Positions 1-9,120 of a stretch of DNA of 9,120 nucleotides are shown here, piece by piece. A program made the translations under genes and the position numbers. The notes beneath the pieces are model-generated. The model ran no database searches. It was given only the letters and a program-made list of their open reading frames with translations, and was not told where the DNA came from. Numbering within the stretch: the stretch's first letter is position 1; the number at the start of each line of letters is the position of its first letter. This DNA is from a virus (Duplodnaviria > Heunggongvirae > Uroviricota > Caudoviricetes): IMG/VR virus record IMGVR_UViG_2778261447_000001, positions 1 through 9,120 of that record; one strand, given 5' to 3'.

Positions 1-130
1 ATGCTTCCATCGGAAACGATGATCTGGCAGCCTGAGTTCACAGATAAAACACTCTCCAGGAAACCCGGGGCGGTTCAATCAGGTTAAATTCACCAATACC
101 TACTGGCTGCAACAGCAGACCAAACAGGCG

Positions 131-553
131 TTGTATAACGGAGCCACACCAATTAGCTTCACAGCAACGGTTACTGCTGATGCTGATTCAGACAGCAGTG
201 GCGATGTGACGGTTACGCTTTCTGGTGTTCCGATTTATGACACTACAAACCCGCAGTACAACTCTGTAAGTCGTCAGGTAGCGGCAGGCGATGCCGTATC
301 TGTGGTAGGCACTGCTAGCCAGACAATGAAGCCAAACCTGTTCTATAACAAGTTCTTCTGTGGACTTGGCTCTATCCCACTACCGAAACTGCACAGTATT
401 GATTCTGCTGTTGCAACATATGAAGGTTTCTCTATCCGCGTACATAAATACGCAGATGGCGATGCCAACGTGCAAAAAATGCGCTTCGACTTACTGCCTG
501 CATATGTGTGCTTTAACCCTCACATGGGCGGTCAGTTCTTCGGTAATCCGTAA
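131..553 (+). CDS. Probable 3' portion of the major capsid (coat) gene; start codon unresolved. The frame is open from nt 23, and the first candidate start is TTG at 131.
   Basis: Long ORF with gene-like, beta-rich composition (T/S/V/G/A) ending at TAA 551-553, followed at once by a strong intrinsic terminator, as expected after a highly expressed capsid gene. It sits just upstream of the gp4-like gene, as coat does in P22-like phages. Similarity to my recalled P22 coat C-terminus is only loose. No ATG/GTG with a Shine-Dalgarno lies in frame. Confidence 0.5.
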   Translation: MYNGATPISFTATVTADADSDSSGDVTVTLSGVPIYDTTNPQYNSVSRQVAAGDAVSVVGTASQTMKPNLFYNKFFCGLGSIPLPKLHSIDSAVATYEGFSIRVHKYADGDANVQKMRFDLLPAYVCFNPHMGGQFFGNP

Positions 554-557
554 TAAC

Positions 558-584
558 AAGGGGCTTACGCCCCTTTTATGTTTT
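558..584 (+). terminator. Rho-independent terminator after the coat-like ORF
   Basis: Perfect 7-bp GC-rich stem AAGGGGC (558-564), loop TTAC, GCCCCTT (569-575), followed by T-tract TTTTATGTTTT. Confidence 0.65.
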
Positions 585-594
585 AAGGAAAAAT

Positions 595-780
595 ATGGAT
601 CGCATGAGTGTATTCCTTGCCGCAGATAACGAATCCGGGCATGTACAGGCCGTTATCGCAGAAAAAGACTTCCAGTTTTTCGAAAAGTTGGGCTTTGTTG
701 CCTCAGTTGATGAATTGAAACCGACCAGTAAGCGAGGTCGTAAGGCGGAAGACAATGGCAACAGTACTGACAAAGGGTGA
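595..780 (+). CDS. Small acidic hypothetical protein (61 aa)
   Basis: ATG at 595 preceded by a strong Shine-Dalgarno (AAGGAAAAATATG) immediately after the terminator. Overlaps the gp4-like start by 26 nt in another frame. No recognisable domain. Confidence 0.4.
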   Translation: MDRMSVFLAADNESGHVQAVIAEKDFQFFEKLGFVASVDELKPTSKRGRKAEDNGNSTDKG

Positions 781-1237
781 GATCGTCCTTTTTGCGCTTC
801 GTAAGTTTGCTATTGCTTCTAATGCATCGCTGACTGATGTTGAGCCGCAATCAATTGAAGATGGTGTAAATGATCTGGAAGATATGATGTCCGAGTGGAT
901 GATTAACCCCGGCGACATTGGTTACGCTTTCGCAACTGGAGATGAGCAACCATTACCAGATGATGAGTCAGGTCTTCCAAGAAAATACAAACACGCAGCA
1001 GGCTATCAGTTATTGCTGAGAATGCTATCTGATTACAGCCTTGAGCCAACTCCGCAAGTTCTCAGTAACGCCCAACGCTCATATGATGCCTTGATGACCG
1101 ACACTCTGGTTGTTCCTTCAATGCGACGACGTGGAGATTTTCCTGTAGGACAGGGTAATAAATATGACGTGTTTACATCTGACCGATATTATCCAGGCAA
1201 TCTCCCTCTGATTGATGGCGATATCCCAAACGCATAG
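755..1237 (+). CDS. P22 gp4-like head completion / tail accessory protein (160 aa)
   Basis: Motif ASLTDVEPQS and overall layout match my recollection of P22 gp4 (166 aa; ...ATLTDVEPQS...). Sits at the expected position before the gp10-like gene. Shine-Dalgarno AAGGCGGA upstream of the ATG. Confidence 0.8.
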   Translation: MATVLTKGEIVLFALRKFAIASNASLTDVEPQSIEDGVNDLEDMMSEWMINPGDIGYAFATGDEQPLPDDESGLPRKYKHAAGYQLLLRMLSDYSLEPTPQVLSNAQRSYDALMTDTLVVPSMRRRGDFPVGQGNKYDVFTSDRYYPGNLPLIDGDIPNA

Positions 1238-1245
1238 GTGAATAA

Positions 1246-2664
1246 ATGCCGATTCAGCAACTTCCGCTTATGAAAGGTGTCGGCAAAGACTTTCGAAACG
1301 CCGACTATATCGACTATCTGCCAGTGAATATGCTGGCTACACCCAAAGAAATCCTCAACAGCAGCGGATATCTTCGCTCATTCCCGGGCATTGCCAAACG
1401 TTCTGATGTGAACGGCGTATCGCGAGGCGTCGAGTACAACATGGCGCAGAATGCTGTTTATCGCGTGTGTGGTGGCAAGCTGTATAAGGGCGAAAGTGAA
1501 GTCGGTGATGTTGCCGGAAGTGGTCGCGTATCAATGGCGCATGGTCGGACATCACAGGCGGTAGGCGTTAATGGTCAACTGGTCGAGTATCGTTATGATG
1601 GCACGGTTAAAACAGTCTCAAACTGGCCTACAGACAGCGGATTCACGCAGTATGAGTTAGGTTCAGTTCGCGACATTACGCGCTTACGTGGGCGTTATGC
1701 GTGGTCAAAAGACGGAACTGATTCATGGTTTATCACTGACCTTGAAGACGAATCGCACCCTGACCGATACAGTGCACAATATCGCGCAGAATCGCAGCCG
1801 GACGGTATCCTCGGTATCGGGACATGGCGAGACTTCATCGTCTGCTTTGGTTCATCGACTATTGAATATTTCTCCCTGACTGGTGCAACCACTGTTGGTG
1901 CTGCTTTGTATGTCGCACAGCCATCACTGATGGTGCAGAAAGGTATTGCCGGGACTTACTGCAAAACGCCATTCGCTGATTCTTATGCGTTCATCAGCAA
2001 TCCGGCAACAGGTGCTCCGTCTGTATACATCATCGGATCCGGTCAGGTTTCACCAATCGCCAGCGCGAGCATTGAGAAAATTCTCCGCTCCTACACTGCT
2101 GATGAACTGGCTGATGGTGTGATGGAGTCTCTGCGATTTGATGCGCATGAGCTGCTGATTATCCATCTTCCGCGCCATGTTCTGGTGTACGACGCATCTT
2201 CAAGCGCCAATGGTCCGCAATGGTGTGTGCTGAAAACAGGTCTGTATGACGATGTGTACCGCGCTATCGACTTCATTTACGAAGGCAATCAGATAACGTG
2301 CGGCGATAAGCTGGAGTCCGTGACCGGGAAATTGCAATTCGACATCAGCAGCCAGTATGGGCTACAGCAAGAACACCTGCTGTTTACTCCGTTGTTCAAA
2401 GCGGATAACGCCAGATGCTTCGATCTGGAGGTGGAATCATCCACTGGCGTAGCTCAGTACGCCGACCGCCTGTTCCTCTCTGCAACCACTGACGGCATCA
2501 ATTACGGTCGTGAGCAGATGATTGAGCAGAATGAACCGTTCGTTTACGACAAACGCGTTTTGTGGAAGCGTGTCGGGCGCATCAGGAAAAATGTCGGCTT
2601 CAAATTGCGCGTTATCACTAAGTCACCTGTCACTCTGTCTGGCTGCCAGATAAGGATTGAGTAA
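1246..2664 (+). CDS. P22 gp10-like tail accessory (tail hub) protein, 472 aa
   Basis: Same length as P22 gp10 (472 aa) and same position between the gp4-like and needle genes. Shine-Dalgarno AGGTGA before the ATG. Stop overlaps the next start (TAATG). Confidence 0.8.
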
Positions 2665-3365
2665 TGGCGGATTCGAATCTCAATGTGCCGGTAATCATCC
2701 AAGCTACGCGGCTCGATACATCAATCCTTCCACGCAATATATTCAGCCAGTCTTACCTGCTGTATGTCATAAATCAGGGTGCTGATGTTGGCGCAATTGC
2801 CGGGAAGGCAAATCAGGCTGGTCAGGGCGCTTACGATGCTCAGGTAAAAAACGATGAACAGGACGTCGAACTGGCAGATCACGACGCAAGAATCACCGCA
2901 AACACAAAAGCGATAAATCTCCTTGAGGTCAGGTTAACAACCGCCGAAGGGAAGATAGTCGTACTGCGTAGCGATGTTGATTACTTGCTGGATGAGGTTA
3001 TCGATATTCAGGCGCATCTGGTCACTGTTGACCAAAGACTGGATGGCGTAGAAAGCGATGTATCTGACATTAAGAGTGATTACGTATCGAAAACCGTAAC
3101 CGAATCGCAGTCTCTTGCGTCACCGCTGGATGTAAAAACATCATATTCAGTTGATGGAATTCAGGTCGTTGGAGCAAGGCAGACCGGATGGACTGCAGCC
3201 ACAGGTACGCCACTTCTTGGCTCATTCAACGCAAACCAGTCATACACTGTCGGCACTACGTACACGCAATCCGAAGTCGCAGCTCTCGCTACAGGTTTGC
3301 AGCAGGCGCGGCAGCGTATTCTGGCGCTTGAAACGGCACTTAGATTACATGGGCTGATTGACTGA
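2664..3365 (+). CDS. P22 gp26-like tail needle (plug) protein, 233 aa
   Basis: N-terminus ([25 protein letters not shown]...[35 protein letters not shown]) and C-terminus (...[15 protein letters not shown]...[21 protein letters not shown]) match recalled P22 gp26. Identical length of 233 aa. Start overlaps the gp10-like stop. Confidence 0.9.
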
Positions 3366-3820
3366 TGATTACATTCAAACCAACGCGAAACATCGACCTG
3401 ATCGAAGCAGTAGGAAATCACCCTGACATTATCGCCGGGAGCAACAACGGTGATGGATACGACTACAAACCTGATTGCCGTTACTTTGAGGTGAACGTGC
3501 ACGGGCAGTTCGGCGGCATTGTTTACTATCAGGAGATTCAGCCGCTGACATTCGATTGCCACGCAATGTACCTGCCAGAGATTCGCGGCTTCAGCAAGGA
3601 AATCGGGCTGGCGTTCTGGCGATACATTCTGACTAACACCACCGTTCAGTGCGTCACATCGTTCGCCGCACGCAAATTCCGCCACGGGCAGATTTACTGC
3701 GCAATGATTGGCCTTAAGCGTGTCGGAACCATCAAGAAATACTTTAAAGGCGTTGATGACGTGACTTTTTACAGCGCCACACGCGAAGAACTAATCGACT
3801 TCCTGAATCACGGGAGATAG
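3365..3820 (+). CDS. Hypothetical virion protein at the P22 gene-14 position (151 aa)
   Basis: ORF translationally coupled to the needle gene (TGATG overlap) and lying between the needle and gp7-like genes. I do not confidently recognise the sequence. Confidence 0.55.
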   Translation: MITFKPTRNIDLIEAVGNHPDIIAGSNNGDGYDYKPDCRYFEVNVHGQFGGIVYYQEIQPLTFDCHAMYLPEIRGFSKEIGLAFWRYILTNTTVQCVTSFAARKFRHGQIYCAMIGLKRVGTIKKYFKGVDDVTFYSATREELIDFLNHGR

Positions 3821-3822
3821 CC

Positions 3823-4515
3823 ATGTTATATGCATTTAAGCTGGGCAGAAAACTGCGCGGCGAGGAACCTTATTGCCCTGAAAAAGGCGGGAAAGGTGGC
3901 AGTTCTGATAAAAGCGCAAAGTATGCAGCAGAAGCTCAGAAGTATGCCGCAGACCTGCAAAATCAGCAGTGGCAGACGATCATGAAAAACCTTGCTCCGT
4001 TCACGCCTCTTGCGGAGCAGTATGTTAACCAGCTTCAGAACCTTTCCAGTTTAGAAGGTCAGGGGCAGGCACTTAATCAGTATTACAACTCTCAGCAGTA
4101 TAAAGACCTTGCAGGTCAGGCTCGTTACCAGAGTCTTGCTGCTGCGGAGGCTACGGGAGGACTTGGTTCGACAGCCACAAGCAATCAACTGGCTACGATC
4201 GCGCCGACTCTCGGTCAGTCTTGGTTGTCAAACCAGATGAGCAATTACAACAATCTGGCAAACGTTGGGCTTGGTGCTCTGCAAGGTCAGGCAAACGCCG
4301 GGCAGACGTACGCCAACAACATGAGCAGCATTGCACAGCAAAGCGCAGCTCTTGCCGCTGCTAATGCCAATAAACCATCAAGTCTTCAGACTGCAATTAG
4401 CGGTGGCACGTCTGGTGCGATTGCCGGTGCAGGTCTTGCCAGCCTTTTGGGAACATCAACGCCTTGGGGCGCTGGCATTGGTGCTGGTATCGGATTGCTT
4501 GGCTCGTTGTTTTAA
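3823..4515 (+). CDS. P22 gp7-like ejection (E) protein, 230 aa
   Basis: Position and size match P22 gp7 (229 aa). Q/N/A-rich body with a Gly/Ala-rich hydrophobic C-terminal tail (GAIAGAGLASLLG...GAGIGAGIGLLGSLF). Shine-Dalgarno GGGAGA before the ATG. Confidence 0.75.
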   Translation: MLYAFKLGRKLRGEEPYCPEKGGKGGSSDKSAKYAAEAQKYAADLQNQQWQTIMKNLAPFTPLAEQYVNQLQNLSSLEGQGQALNQYYNSQQYKDLAGQARYQSLAAAEATGGLGSTATSNQLATIAPTLGQSWLSNQMSNYNNLANVGLGALQGQANAGQTYANNMSSIAQQSAALAAANANKPSSLQTAISGGTSGAIAGAGLASLLGTSTPWGAGIGAGIGLLGSLF

Positions 4516-4524
4516 GGGGTAATC

Positions 4525-5856
4525 ATGGCTACTTGGCAAGGAACAAACGGCGGATTGTTGGCTGGTATCGGCGGCGTCAACTCAAACGCTCCGAGCGTAA
4601 ATGACATCGGCAATACGCTTCAGCTTATCAGGCAGAACAATGATATTGAGCGTTCAGGCGCTAACAATGTTGGGCTGACTGCTTTGCAAGGCCTTTCAGG
4701 TATTGCGGGGGTGTTTCAGCAGGAAAAGCAGGCTCAGCGGCAGAAAGAATTTCAGCAGGCATACGCTAATGCTTATGCGTCTGGTGATCGCGGTGCTTTG
4801 CGTCAGTTAGCTACTCAATATCCAGACCAGATTGAATCCGTTCGTAAAGGCATGGGATTCATTGATGAAGAGCAGCGCAATTCTATCGGCACCTTAGCGG
4901 CTGGCGCACGCCTTGCGTCATCGTCTCCTGATGCGATGGCTAACTGGCTGCAATCTAACGCCGGTGAGTTAGCTCGTGTTGGCGTTAATCCTCAGGATGT
5001 CGCTCAGATGTACCAACAGAACCCGCAGCAGTTCGGCGAATTTGTCGATCACCTGGGGATGGCCAGTCTCGGACCCGAAAAATACTTTGACCTTCAGGAT
5101 AAAATGCAGGGTCGCCAGGTGACCATGCGCGGTCAGGATCTGGATTCGCAAACCGCCGCCCGGAATCAGGCAATCACAATGCGTGGGCAAGATATCCAGG
5201 CAAATTTAGGTCAGCAGCGCATTAATCTGGACGCAGAAACAAACCGCATTAACAACGAAAATAAGCACCTTGACCGGATGCTATCAGCAGAAACTAACGA
5301 CCTGAAGCGCCAGGAAATACAGAGCCGCATAGCAGCCAACAACCAGAAGTTGCAGCAGAAGCAGCAAGAGCTAAATGATGGCTACAAAGACGGCATCAAC
5401 ACTCTCACAACCAGCATGTTCACTCTGAACGATATCGTTAATTCTCCTGCACTTAAGAGCATTACAGGCTTACGTGGAGCAATCCCCAACGTTCCAGGCT
5501 CACAAGCTGCAGACACTCAGGCGCGACTTGATACCTTTAAATCCCAAGCATACCTGACAGCGGTTCAGGCCATGCGAGGCATGGGCGCACTTTCTGATGC
5601 CGAGGGCAAAAAGCTCGACCAGGCTGTTGGTTCGCTGCAGAACTCACAGAGCGAGGAGTCCTTTCGTCGCAACGCTGGCGTCATCCTGAACACGCTCAAC
5701 CAGAAGCGTAATGAGGCGGTTGGTAAGTACGTTCAGCAAAACGGTATCAAGCGAGTGGAAGCGCCTCAGGCTTCTATAGATTACCTGAAGCAGCACCCCG
5801 AGCTGTCAATCGACTTCATTAATCGCTACGGATATCTTCCATCTTTGGGGCAGTAA
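4525..5856 (+). CDS. P22 gp20-like ejection protein, 443 aa
   Basis: Second of three consecutive ejection-protein genes (P22 order 7-20-16). Shine-Dalgarno AAGGGG before the ATG. Q/N-rich with internal short repeats. Confidence 0.7.
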   Translation: MATWQGTNGGLLAGIGGVNSNAPSVNDIGNTLQLIRQNNDIERSGANNVGLTALQGLSGIAGVFQQEKQAQRQKEFQQAYANAYASGDRGALRQLATQYPDQIESVRKGMGFIDEEQRNSIGTLAAGARLASSSPDAMANWLQSNAGELARVGVNPQDVAQMYQQNPQQFGEFVDHLGMASLGPEKYFDLQDKMQGRQVTMRGQDLDSQTAARNQAITMRGQDIQANLGQQRINLDAETNRINNENKHLDRMLSAETNDLKRQEIQSRIAANNQKLQQKQQELNDGYKDGINTLTTSMFTLNDIVNSPALKSITGLRGAIPNVPGSQAADTQARLDTFKSQAYLTAVQAMRGMGALSDAEGKKLDQAVGSLQNSQSEESFRRNAGVILNTLNQKRNEAVGKYVQQNGIKRVEAPQASIDYLKQHPELSIDFINRYGYLPSLGQ

Positions 5857-8250
5857 ATGGCTAATTACCGTGATTTGTTAGAGCAGGCTGGCGCACGTTA
5901 CGGTGTGCCAGAAGGGTTGATGACTGCACTGGGTGCCAAGGAGTCTTCTTACAACCCTGCCGCAGTAAGCTCCGCCGGGGCTGTAGGATTGACTCAGGTC
6001 ATGCCTGGGACATGGCGTGATATGGGTTATACCGATGAGCAAATGCAAAACCCCGAATATCAGGCTGACGCTGGCGCGCGCTATCTGGCAAAGATGTACC
6101 AGCAGTTTGGTAACTGGCGTGACGCTCTTCAGGCTTATCACGACGGTCCCGGCAACGTTATGAAGGCAAAGCGTGGTGAATATACGCCAGGACCTGAAGG
6201 CCGCGGTTACGTTGATGATCGCTTTGCTCAATGGGCGGGTGACCCGGTGACAGACTCAACAGTCGAACAGCGCGCCACCTCTGCAAAGGTACATCCTCAG
6301 CAAGACCCTAACAACCCGTTTGCACAACTGGAAGCACAGTCATCCGAACAAGTATCGGCATCAGGCGTGCAGTCAGACCCAAATAATCCATTTGCTCAGA
6401 TTGAGCAGCAGGCAGCCAGTCAGCAGCCACCTCAACCCGTAAGTTCTGTCGCACCGAAACCTGTTCAGCAGCAAGGCGGAATAATGTCTGACCTTGGTAA
6501 TGGACTTGCTGAAACCGGGCGCGGCTTACTACAGGCAGGAATCAACGTAGCGAACATACCTTCTGAACTCACTGATGCTGTAACAAGCGCGGCGGCTTGG
6601 GCTGGCGGTAAACTCGGTATTGGCGATGGTACATATCAACCAGCACCACGAGTAACAACGCAGGGATTAGAGCAGGACTTTGGCCTTAAGCAAGGCGCGC
6701 TGACTCCACAAACGACAGAGGGAAGGGTATTTGCTGAAGCATTGCCTTACCTCACTCCCGCTGGCATTGAGAGAGCGGCAACACAGGCACCAACACTTGC
6801 TGGTCGAATTGCTCAGGGGGCAACTCGCCTTCTAGCAGAAAACGCAGTTGGATCACTTGCTGCAAATAGTGCGAAAGATGATGCGGAAGCACTCGCCACC
6901 GATTTAGGCGTTGGTGTACTTGCTGGCGGTGCTATTAACGCTGCCGGACGTGGATTAGGTGCTGCTTATCGTGGCGTTCGTGGTGCTATCGCGCCAGAAG
7001 CGCAGCAGGCTATCAGATTTGCAGAGCGTGAAGGAGTTCCTCTGCACACCACAGACCTGTTACAACCCACTTCCCGCGTCGGAAAAATGGCGCAGACTAC
7101 AGCAGAAAATATCCCTCTGGCTGGCACAAGCGGAATGAGAGCAACGCAACAGGAAGCGAGAAGCCAGTTGGTGCAGAGATTTGCCGATAAATTCGGTGAG
7201 TATGATCCAGCGGTTGTTATTGACAGCCTTAAAGCGAAAACATCAGGAATTCGTCGTGCCGCCGGTAATCGACTGGAGCAGGTACAGAATGCAATGGCAG
7301 GAATCAACATTCAACCTGCCAGAGCAATTCAGCAGATAGATACTGAGATATCTAACCTGCAGAAGCTTGGTAAGGTCGCTGATAACGAGACGATTTCAAA
7401 ACTTCAATCCTATCGTGATGAGCTTATTCGCAATGCTGGTCCTGATGGTCCGGTAAATCTGGATTTGAAGCAATTAAGCGATCTACGCAGCCAGTTCAGA
7501 ATGGACGTGAAGGGTGAGCGACCAGTGTTACCAAACCGCTCCGATGCCGCCATTCAGCGCGTTTACAAGGCGATGACAGACGATATCAATGGTGCCATTG
7601 GTCAGAATCTTGGCAATGATACTCTCCGTAAATATCAGCAGGCCAATGCCGTCTACGCTGACGAAGCAGCGAAACTAAAGAATACCAGGCTGAAGAATGT
7701 TCTCATGAAAGGCGACCTGACACCGGAAGTTGTCAACAACATGCTATTCAGCAAGAACAAATCGGAAATTAAGACGCTGTATAACTCAGTTGGTCGTGTT
7801 GGCAGGGCGCAAATGCGCAATGGCATCATTGGGAAGGCGATGGAGAAATCTGGCGGATCCCCTGACCAGTTCCTTCGACAGCTTAACATCCTGCAAAACC
7901 AGACTGGCATCACATTTAAGGGGCAGGACGCTGCTTATCTGAAAGGATTGAAAAACTACCTGCAATCCACGCAGCAGGCTGCAAAAGCGGCAGTAACAAC
8001 ACCAACAGGGCAGCAAACCATCCCGTTCATTATCGGATATGGGACAGCAATGAACCCTGCGACAACTGGCGCAGCAGTAAGCTACGGACTTCTTACTCGC
8101 GCCTATGAGAGTGAGCCATTCAGAAATGCAATGCTCCGAATGGCAAACACCCCACGCGGATCAACAGCGTTTGAGAAAGCCATGCAGCAGGCGCAAAAGG
8201 CCATTAACGCTCTGACGCAGGGGGCTAAGTCTGATGCGTTGTCAGAATAG
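5857..8250 (+). CDS. gp16-like ejection protein with an N-terminal lytic transglycosylase (SLT/GH23) domain, 797 aa
   Basis: ATG abuts the gp20-like stop (TAAATG). The N-terminal ~120 aa carry SLT motifs: catalytic Glu in AKESSYNP, then GLTQVMPGTW and AYHDGPGN. The remaining ~600 aa match the size and position of P22 gp16 (609 aa). Confidence 0.85.
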   Translation: MANYRDLLEQAGARYGVPEGLMTALGAKESSYNPAAVSSAGAVGLTQVMPGTWRDMGYTDEQMQNPEYQADAGARYLAKMYQQFGNWRDALQAYHDGPGNVMKAKRGEYTPGPEGRGYVDDRFAQWAGDPVTDSTVEQRATSAKVHPQQDPNNPFAQLEAQSSEQVSASGVQSDPNNPFAQIEQQAASQQPPQPVSSVAPKPVQQQGGIMSDLGNGLAETGRGLLQAGINVANIPSELTDAVTSAAAWAGGKLGIGDGTYQPAPRVTTQGLEQDFGLKQGALTPQTTEGRVFAEALPYLTPAGIERAATQAPTLAGRIAQGATRLLAENAVGSLAANSAKDDAEALATDLGVGVLAGGAINAAGRGLGAAYRGVRGAIAPEAQQAIRFAEREGVPLHTTDLLQPTSRVGKMAQTTAENIPLAGTSGMRATQQEARSQLVQRFADKFGEYDPAVVIDSLKAKTSGIRRAAGNRLEQVQNAMAGINIQPARAIQQIDTEISNLQKLGKVADNETISKLQSYRDELIRNAGPDGPVNLDLKQLSDLRSQFRMDVKGERPVLPNRSDAAIQRVYKAMTDDINGAIGQNLGNDTLRKYQQANAVYADEAAKLKNTRLKNVLMKGDLTPEVVNNMLFSKNKSEIKTLYNSVGRVGRAQMRNGIIGKAMEKSGGSPDQFLRQLNILQNQTGITFKGQDAAYLKGLKNYLQSTQQAAKAAVTTPTGQQTIPFIIGYGTAMNPATTGAAVSYGLLTRAYESEPFRNAMLRMANTPRGSTAFEKAMQQAQKAINALTQGAKSDALSE
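6304..6411 (+). repeat. Tandem duplication of a short peptide motif (DPNNPFAQ[L/I]E) in the linker of the gp16-like protein, period 72 nt
   Basis: gaccctaacaacccgtttgcacaactggaa (6304-) and gacccaaataatccatttgctcagattgag (6376-) encode QDPNNPFAQLE and SDPNNPFAQIE. The two copies differ mostly at synonymous positions. Confidence 0.6.
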
Positions 8251-8319
8251 CTTCGCAAACACCAGGAACGTGCAAAAACCAAATATGTAGAACGCAATAT
8301 TCAGCATATCTCTTTGCAT
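8242..8319 (-). CDS. Candidate small hydrophobic peptide (25 aa, MQRDMLNIAFYIFGFCTFLVFAKLF)
   Basis: Hand-translated - strand ORF. ATG lies 4 nt after a GGAGG Shine-Dalgarno and 20 nt after the mnt stop. Predicted single transmembrane-like helix. Overlaps the last 9 nt of the gp16-like gene. Too short to judge by composition. Confidence 0.25.
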   Translation of the reverse strand: MQRDMLNIAFYIFGFCTFLVFAKLF

Positions 8320-8339
8320 AAATCCTCCGTAATGGATGG

Positions 8340-8600
8340 TTATCTGCTGTCTTTTTTATATAGCTTCTTGAGCGTATCAAAGACAATTTTCTTAACCATA
8401 TCAGATTGTTGTTCTGCCATACGCTCTGCATCGTCAATGTAAACTGATGCAGAGCTTTGTTTAGCCAACGATTCTTCAATCGCTGCAATTATCTCTGAGT
8501 TCAGCGACCTGTTATTCATCTTCGCGCGCTGTTTAATTTTCGCGTGAAGTTCATGCGGAAGTCTCAAGTGAAACTGCGCCTCGTCGTATTTGCTGTACAT
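8340..8600 (-). CDS. mnt: Mnt-like ribbon-helix-helix (Arc/MetJ family) repressor, 86 aa
   Basis: C-terminal half DAERMAEQQSDMVKKIVFDTLKKLYKK closely matches recalled P22 Mnt (DAERLADEQSELVKKMVFDTLKDLYKK). The N-terminal strand FHLRLPHELHAKIKQRAKMNNRSLNSEI matches the RHH pattern (P22: FNFRMPMEVREKLKFRAEANGRSMNSEL). Start chosen at the internal ATG (8600), which has GAGG 8 nt upstream; the upstream ATG at 8633 has no Shine-Dalgarno. Confidence 0.8.
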   Translation of the reverse strand: MYSKYDEAQFHLRLPHELHAKIKQRAKMNNRSLNSEIIAAIEESLAKQSSASVYIDDAERMAEQQSDMVKKIVFDTLKKLYKKDSR

Positions 8601-8721
8601 CCTTGATGCCTCACCAGTTGGGTGGAATGGCATCGTAACTTACTGGATAAATACTCAATAGTACCATTTCGGTATGCAATCACATCATGGTTGCATCATA
8701 TCATTCGTCTGGAGCAATGAA
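8601..8721. promoter_or_regulatory. Divergent intergenic control region between mnt (-) and tailspike (+); expected site of the mnt promoter and operator
   Basis: 121-bp AT-rich spacer between divergent starts. Contains an inverted repeat ATGCAA-N11-TTGCAT (8674-8696) and a short CACC-N5-GGTG dyad (about 8611-8623). The promoter hexamers are not confidently assignable by eye. Confidence 0.35.
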
Positions 8722-9045
8722 ATGTCAGATATCACCGCAAATGTTGTGGTAAGCATGCCTTCGCAACTCTTCACTATGGCGCGTTCTTTTAAAGCGGTTG
8801 CCAATGGCAAAATTTATATCGGAAAAATTGACACTGACCCGGTAAATCCTGAAAACCAGATTCAGGTTTATATAGAGAACGAAGACGGCTCTCACGTTCC
8901 TGTTTCGCAACCAATCATCATTAATGCTGCTGGATATCCGGTATATAACGGACAGATTGCCAAGTTCGTAACTGTGCAAGGCCACTCTATGGCTGTTTAT
9001 GATGCGTACGGTTCGCAGCAGTTCTATTTCCCGAATGTACTTAAG
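8722..9045 (+). pseudogene. Tailspike gene (P22 gp9-like), N-terminal head-binding domain only; truncated after codon 108 by an IS2 insertion
   Basis: Translation [108 protein letters not shown] is near-identical to recalled P22 tailspike residues 1-108. Shine-Dalgarno GGAG lies 7 nt before the ATG at 8722. After ...FPNVLK the sequence switches to IS2 terminal sequence. Confidence 0.85.
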
Positions 9046-9120
9046 TGGATTTGCCCCTATATTTCCAGACATCTGTTATCACTTAACCCATTACAAGCCC
9101 GCTGCCGCAGATATTCCCGT
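9046..9120 (-). mobile_element. IS2 insertion sequence terminus (partial; the element continues past the window end), transposase on the - strand
   Basis: 9046-9120 is the reverse complement of the recalled IS2 end ...CGGGAATATCTGCGGCAGCGGGCTTGTAATGGGTTAAGTGATAACAGATGTCTGGAAATATAGGGGCAAATCCA. On the - strand it encodes the transposase OrfB C-terminus ...[20 protein letters not shown] with its stop at 9057-9059. Confidence 0.8.

Follow-up and report, generated by a model that had tools for sequence, protein, structure and literature searches.

An IS2 right end directly behind the head-binding domain of the tailspike gene in a P22/Sf6-like prophage remnant

What became of the tailspike gene at the end of this contig? 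The DNA considered here, called the window throughout, is the whole 9,120-bp contig NOCS01000111.1 of draft assembly GCA_002549495.1. Its last reading frame opens with the head-binding domain of a P22-type tailspike and runs off the contig in codons of another origin. The original prediction was that an IS2 element had cut the gene at the boundary between the head-binding and receptor-binding domains and that the prophage was on this account probably unable to make adsorption-competent virions. We consider it very probable (about 0.9) that a canonical IS2 lies directly after tailspike codon 108 in an E. coli or Shigella prophage of the P22/Sf6-like (Lederbergvirus) type, and that this prophage is a defective remnant whose coat gene has been cut by an insertion sequence as well. 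The features on which this reading draws are collected in Table 1.

Table 1. Features of the window, with coordinates, strand and the basis for each assignment
Feature	Position	Strand	Basis
IS1203/IS629 right end, transposase stop at 33-35; adjoins truncated coat gene	1..77	+	77/77 identity
Coat (major capsid) gene, 3' remnant, last 157 codons	78..553	+	PF11651 P22_CoatProtein, profile 273-423/423
Seven intact late genes: homologues of gp4, gp10, gp26 (needle), gp14, gp7, gp20, gp16	755..8250	+	Uninterrupted ORFs, Pfam families
Mnt/Arc-type repressor gene (immI-like), divergent from tailspike gene	8340..8633	-	PF11423 Repressor_Mnt E 9e-15, PF03869 Arc E 9e-15
Ribosome-binding site GGAG, 7 nt 5' of ATG 8722-8724	8711..8714	+	Direct sequence reading
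Tailspike gene, 5' part, codons 1-108, complete head-binding (particle-binding) domain	8722..9045	+	PF09008 match, Sf6/P22 identity
Fusion ORF, 108 tailspike codons plus IS2-encoded residues (first 25 in window)	8722..9120	+	Translation; read-through of the IS2 copy in L006
TTAAG, predicted 5-bp target-site duplication, one copy in window	9041..9045	.	Inferred from other IS2 copies
IS2 right end, reverse orientation, running off contig end; right inverted repeat (IRR) ~9046-9086	9046..9120	-	75/75 identity to annotated copies
IS2 OrfB/OrfAB transposase, last 20 codons plus stop (TAG, 9057-9059)	9057..9119	-	Identical to annotated CDS end in L006

The affiliation of the prophage is readily recognized. 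Pfam families along the contig follow the order coat, gp4, gp10, gp26, gp14, gp7, gp20, gp16, tailspike, which is that of a P22/Sf6-like late operon, and DNA identity is 95-96% to phages IME10 and Sf6 (96% to IME10 over 1240-9046). The homologue of gp16, the DNA-transfer (ejection) protein, is encoded at 5857-8250 and has 797 aa; an SLT lytic-transglycosylase domain (PF01464, E 3e-25) lies in its N-terminal part. The corresponding gene of Sf6 measures 1998 bp (about 665 aa). The Mnt/Arc-type gene has counterparts in relatives that are annotated 'Arc family DNA-binding protein', and its place directly upstream of the tailspike gene differs from the Sf6 annotation. Neither an ant gene nor an arc-ant pair was found between it and the tailspike gene (window 8340-8721). 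The intergenic region separating the two genes carries a 9-nt inverted repeat (8674-8682 and 8688-8696; ATGCAATCA/TGGTTGCAT), a putative control site that could be an operator.

Going by its sequence, the gene that closes the window is a truncated tailspike gene. Codons 1-108 match the Head_binding family (PF09008) with an E value of 2.3e-65 and a score of 218 bits (cut-off 24), protein residues 1-108 aligning with positions 1-108 of the 113-position profile; this part ends in FYFPNVLK, with K108 as its last residue. Of the solved structures, Sf6 gp14 (7sg7, E 1e-62) matches best, and the P22 gp9 entries (1lkt, 2xc1) come next. Exact identity amounts to 99 of 108 residues for Sf6 gp14 (91.7%) and to 82 of 107 for P22 gp9 (76.6%), while E. 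coli prophage alleles of the same part are up to 97-98% identical. The domain had been described as almost exactly of the P22 type, a statement that holds for the type of domain but overstates the likeness to P22 itself. Both Sf6 gp14 and P22 gp9 have this head-binding domain in common with the window gene, and their genes likewise close the late operon. In contrast to the window tailspike, however, they continue into a YDPDQ linker and a beta-helix receptor-binding/endoglycosidase domain.

What follows the tailspike codons is the end of an IS2 element. All bases of 9046-9120 (75/75) agree with the right end of elements that carry the annotation 'IS3-like element IS2 family transposase', which bears out the earlier placement of an IS2 terminal inverted repeat, in reverse orientation, from 9046 onwards. 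The C-terminus of the transposase had likewise been read on the minus strand, and the codons at 9057-9119 indeed give the same C-terminal residues as the annotated IS2 coding sequence. OrfB, the DDE transposase, reads towards the right inverted repeat and ends inside it, only the last 20 of its codons lying in the window. Our reference copy of IS2, found beside galF in strain E2863 (L006, 2501-3831), measures 1331 bp and has GTTAC on both flanks. Because the copy is bounded in this way, T9046 can be taken as the first base of IS2 and TGGATTTGCCCC... as the true terminus; comparison of the two ends of the copy makes an imperfect 41/42-nt inverted repeat visible. The window thus shares with the IS2 of E. 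coli, without a mismatch, the terminal 75 bases, in which lie the right inverted repeat of 41 nt and the final 20 transposase codons with their stop. Canonical IS2, at 1331 bp, also has a left inverted repeat and the orfA/orfB pair with its programmed -1 frameshift, whereas the window has 75 bases of the element. Seen from the other side, every alignment with phage and prophage tailspikes ends at 9046. These alignments run one base past 9045 because the T with which IS2 begins coincides with the first base of the TAY codon (Tyr109) of the relatives.

One might object that, with an IS2 part of just 75 bases right at the edge of a draft contig, the assembler has created a chimeric junction and the gene is in reality intact. 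We regard this as very improbable. De Bruijn short-read assemblers break contigs shortly inside multi-copy repeats at true junctions, and the overhang to be expected in such a case is at most about one k-mer length. Of 5426 complete E. coli genomes, 3126 contain at least 80% of the 75-base IS2 end (E 1e-30), in a median of 2 places per genome and a maximum of 29. The window stops inside IS2 because IS2 is a repeat, its end having been placed there by the breaking of contigs in short-read assembly. Furthermore, the Logan contig of SRR3974397, a separate assembly made with another assembler, corresponds to window positions 50-9072 and has the same two junctions; it extends 27 bases into IS2, compared with 75 bases for NOCS01000111.1. 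Finally, the break coincides precisely with the first base of the IS2 terminus, which is the pattern that transposition should leave; a random chimera would not be expected to show it.

The junction itself was present in none of the 5426 complete E. coli genomes, where the best tailspike match (97.5%) ends at 9046, and the exact junction gave no match in GTDB species representatives, IMG/VR or JGI metagenomes. At the protein level, a search with the reconstructed 136-aa fusion retrieved other IS2-tailspike fusions, the window's own fusion being absent, and exact look-ups of its 136-, 133-, 125-, 124- and 117-aa forms showed them to be absent from the protein collection.

Where does the cut fall relative to the domains of the protein? 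The 108 residues were aligned with 116 related proteins obtained from the protein search. Column conservation among these relatives is 88-99% at residues 99-113 and then drops to 68%, 53%, 47% and 34% at residues 114-117, staying mostly below 50% beyond. The YDPDQ linker, directly after the position of K108, is 93-99% conserved in 117 relatives. The cut after K108 is therefore five codons upstream of the similarity boundary (residue 113/114) of P22-like tailspikes, and it removes the linker, together with all sequence beyond, from the tailspike frame. The crystallised head-binding fragment of P22 (1lkt) aligns up to query residue 108, which is the residue at the cut. In the epsilon34 genome paper, the shared head-binding domain is given as residues 1-115, the C-terminal portions being unrelated (PMC2629481). 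The view that the break lies at the boundary between the head-binding and receptor-binding domains can be maintained on these grounds, with the refinement that it comes five codons before similarity is lost and at the end residue of 1lkt.

Past K108, an in-frame YDPDQ linker and receptor-binding domain are absent from the window, and the frame reads IS2-derived residues beginning WICPYISRH. When the missing part is reconstructed with the L006 copy, the fusion frame continues through 28 codons of IS2 on the strand antisense to the transposase and yields a product of 136 aa that ends 9 nt beyond the contig end, provided that the IS2 of the window is canonical. In mechanistic terms, IS2 severs the gene between its particle-binding and O-antigen-binding domains; translation would then proceed through these 28 codons to a stop, and the product, at most 136 residues long, would have no receptor-binding part. 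Since the receptor-binding endoglycosidase part would be missing from such a product, it is probable that no functional tailspike can be made.

The opposite end of the window presents a similar picture. The first 77 bases are identical (77/77) to the right end of elements bearing the annotation 'IS3-like element IS1203 family transposase', the coding sequence of which ends at window position 35, and homology to coat genes of the P22/Sf6 type (Sf6 and E. coli prophages) starts at base 78. What remains of the coat gene is an open reading frame of 157 aa (80-553), to be compared with a gene of 1272 bp in Sf6. From the homology on either side of base 78, the coat gene is interrupted too, by IS1203/IS629. 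Two different insertion sequences are thus found in one prophage, IS1203/IS629 at the coat gene and IS2 at the tailspike gene.

How IS2 reached its present position is a matter of greater doubt. For comparison we used the flanks of two other copies, the one beside galF (GTTAC) and one in E. coli DETEC-P829 (CCAAG), in which 5-bp duplications stand directly beside TGGATTT... and ...CAGTCTA. By analogy, the element of the window would have entered by transposition with duplication of TTAAG (9041-9045). A simple insertion predicts an opposite junction in which the left end of IS2, ...GGAGATTCAGGGGGCCAGTCTA, is followed by TTAAG TAY GAY CCN GAY CA; a search for this junction in the form GGGGGCCAGTCTA+TTAAG+TAYGAYCC gave no match in IMG/VR and GTDB representatives. 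We consider ordinary transposition, with the TTAAG duplicated and the rest of the tailspike gene lying beyond the element, to be the likelier course of events. Simple insertion is favoured by roughly two to one over a deletion or rearrangement bounded by the IS because the flanking late genes are intact, which we take as the mark of a recent event.

The copy in DETEC-P829 deserves closer attention, as it can be followed across its full length. In the complete genomes of this strain and of strain F8, a 1331-bp IS2-type element (L001, 6366-7696) is inserted after codon 83 of the tailspike gene of a prophage at argW/intS, in the same orientation as the IS2 of the window and with the 5-bp duplication CCAAG, the gene resuming directly behind it. 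The resemblance to the window extends to the homologous gene, the IS family, the orientation and the location within the head-binding domain. The site is nevertheless another one (codon 83, CCAAG) and the element a diverged IS2 variant, indicating an independent event. The annotation of DETEC-P829 shows nothing more of the tailspike behind the IS than a short partial fragment (locus 7687-7824), after which some 1.6 kb pass before another annotated gene starts.

This last circumstance is among those that lend some weight to a different history, in which the IS2 of the window is the edge of a deletion, an inversion or another IS-mediated rearrangement. In that case the gene's 3' part, perhaps along with the adjacent O-antigen-modification and integrase end of the prophage, would have been lost or moved, and excision of the IS could never restore the gene. 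IS ends are found at both ends of the 9-kb contig, and a related prophage in GPEC1292 has a large internal deletion. In yet another contig (JAQQHJ010000079; L009, 4277-5160), the aerobactin genes iutA/iucD/iucC, in place of the remaining tailspike gene, come immediately after an IS2-type stub at tailspike codon ~169, so that rearrangements bounded by an IS do occur. We rate such a rearrangement as possible but distinctly less probable than simple insertion. The genes enclosed by the IS ends are all intact, which suggests recent insertion events of the simple kind; DETEC-P829 itself exemplifies a clean insertion with duplication, and the window shows no sign of a deletion within it.

A further IS2-type end was found after tailspike codon 99 in metagenome contigs that end inside the IS (L007/L008, 6001-6436). 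We regard the four tailspike insertions as independent events because their sites differ and because three of them involve variant IS2 elements. Their common orientation is no finding in itself; it reflects a bias of the searches, whose queries held the right end of IS2 or its read-through peptide. In all four, the bases directly 5' of the IS2 right end are AG (AAG in three; window 9039-9045), and in the galF copy they are AC. A target preference may lie behind this, or chance; the sample is small and biased. A free-standing head-binding-domain reading frame of 109 aa, ending ...FPNILNV*, occurs in a small prophage remnant on contigs of 290-377 kb (L013/L014, 3001-3330), near a folD-type gene (Pfam THF_DHG_CYH); here the tailspike is truncated at nearly the same residue with no IS read-through. 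Hundreds of 'partial' head-binding proteins in the database are exactly 109 aa long (P0056, P0066). The idea that these represent IS-truncated genes was dropped: the one example looked up, P0056 (L012, 2309-2636), is due to a contig end at codon 109, near the end of the conserved module.

The recurrence of truncations near the same point (IS2-type elements after codons 83 and 99, the 109-aa frame near folD) might invite the speculation that the truncated product is functional. One could imagine a free head-binding domain being kept as a competitor of full tailspikes for the tail hub or, more specifically, the 136-residue product, consisting of the domain and a 28-residue IS2-derived tail, acting as a decoy that occupies the tail-hub sites of co-resident or superinfecting P22/Sf6-like phages and hinders their assembly. 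The domain is complete to the residue that ends the crystallised fragment, and its ribosome-binding site is intact. If the idea were true, the recurrent truncations near the domain boundary would reflect selection and not chance. We nonetheless find it most unlikely, in the general form as in the decoy version. Its support consists in the intactness of the domain and a few other truncated copies, the insertions lie at different codons, and the search that brought the other cases to light was biased towards them. Moreover, the exact allele with its junction occurs in no other collection searched, and random IS insertions together with decay account for everything. The coincidence of the cut with the end of the crystallised fragment does make the locus a natural test case for interference of a free domain with phage assembly, although nothing here suggests such interference.

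What, then, would the two interruptions mean for the prophage? As argued above, a canonical IS2 after codon 108 would leave it without a usable tailspike, and IS1203/IS629 cuts the coat gene about 9 kb upstream in the same prophage, in what would be an IS-rich host. With the coat gene cut, the prophage is probably unable to build capsids, and spike-less particles are no longer the phenotype to be expected; they are improbable unless the genome carries an intact coat gene at another locus. The original prediction was therefore correct in that IS2 severs the tailspike gene, and the part of it that does not stand is the appearance of spike-less particles, since the second IS, which the prediction had not taken into account, interferes at an earlier step of assembly. 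Loss of virion production may thus be inferred. Expression of the truncated head-binding domain is plausible from the sequence signals, because the ribosome-binding site is intact and a consensus scan found no terminator-like site on the plus strand between gp16 and the tailspike ATG.

For annotation, the 133-codon open reading frame at the contig end is best described as a tailspike/IS2 fusion, an artefact of a truncated gene, and not as a 'head-binding domain protein'. More generally, the contig ends of draft assemblies carry readable IS junctions that expose gene disruptions. Beyond annotation the significance of the locus is slight. IS2, the architecture of P22/Sf6 tailspikes, the exchange of modules at the linker and the inactivation of prophage genes by insertion sequences are all well known. 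The junction itself, although absent from every collection searched, just adds one more example of a familiar process, ordinary prophage decay. Interruption of prophage structural genes by insertion sequences is common in IS-rich E. coli and Shigella hosts. In the IS-driven decay of lambdoid prophages in such bacteria, as with IS629/IS1203 in the prophages of STEC, late structural genes are interrupted likewise, and the present case shows no difference in kind. Since its coat and tailspike genes are both interrupted, the prophage is to be called defective.
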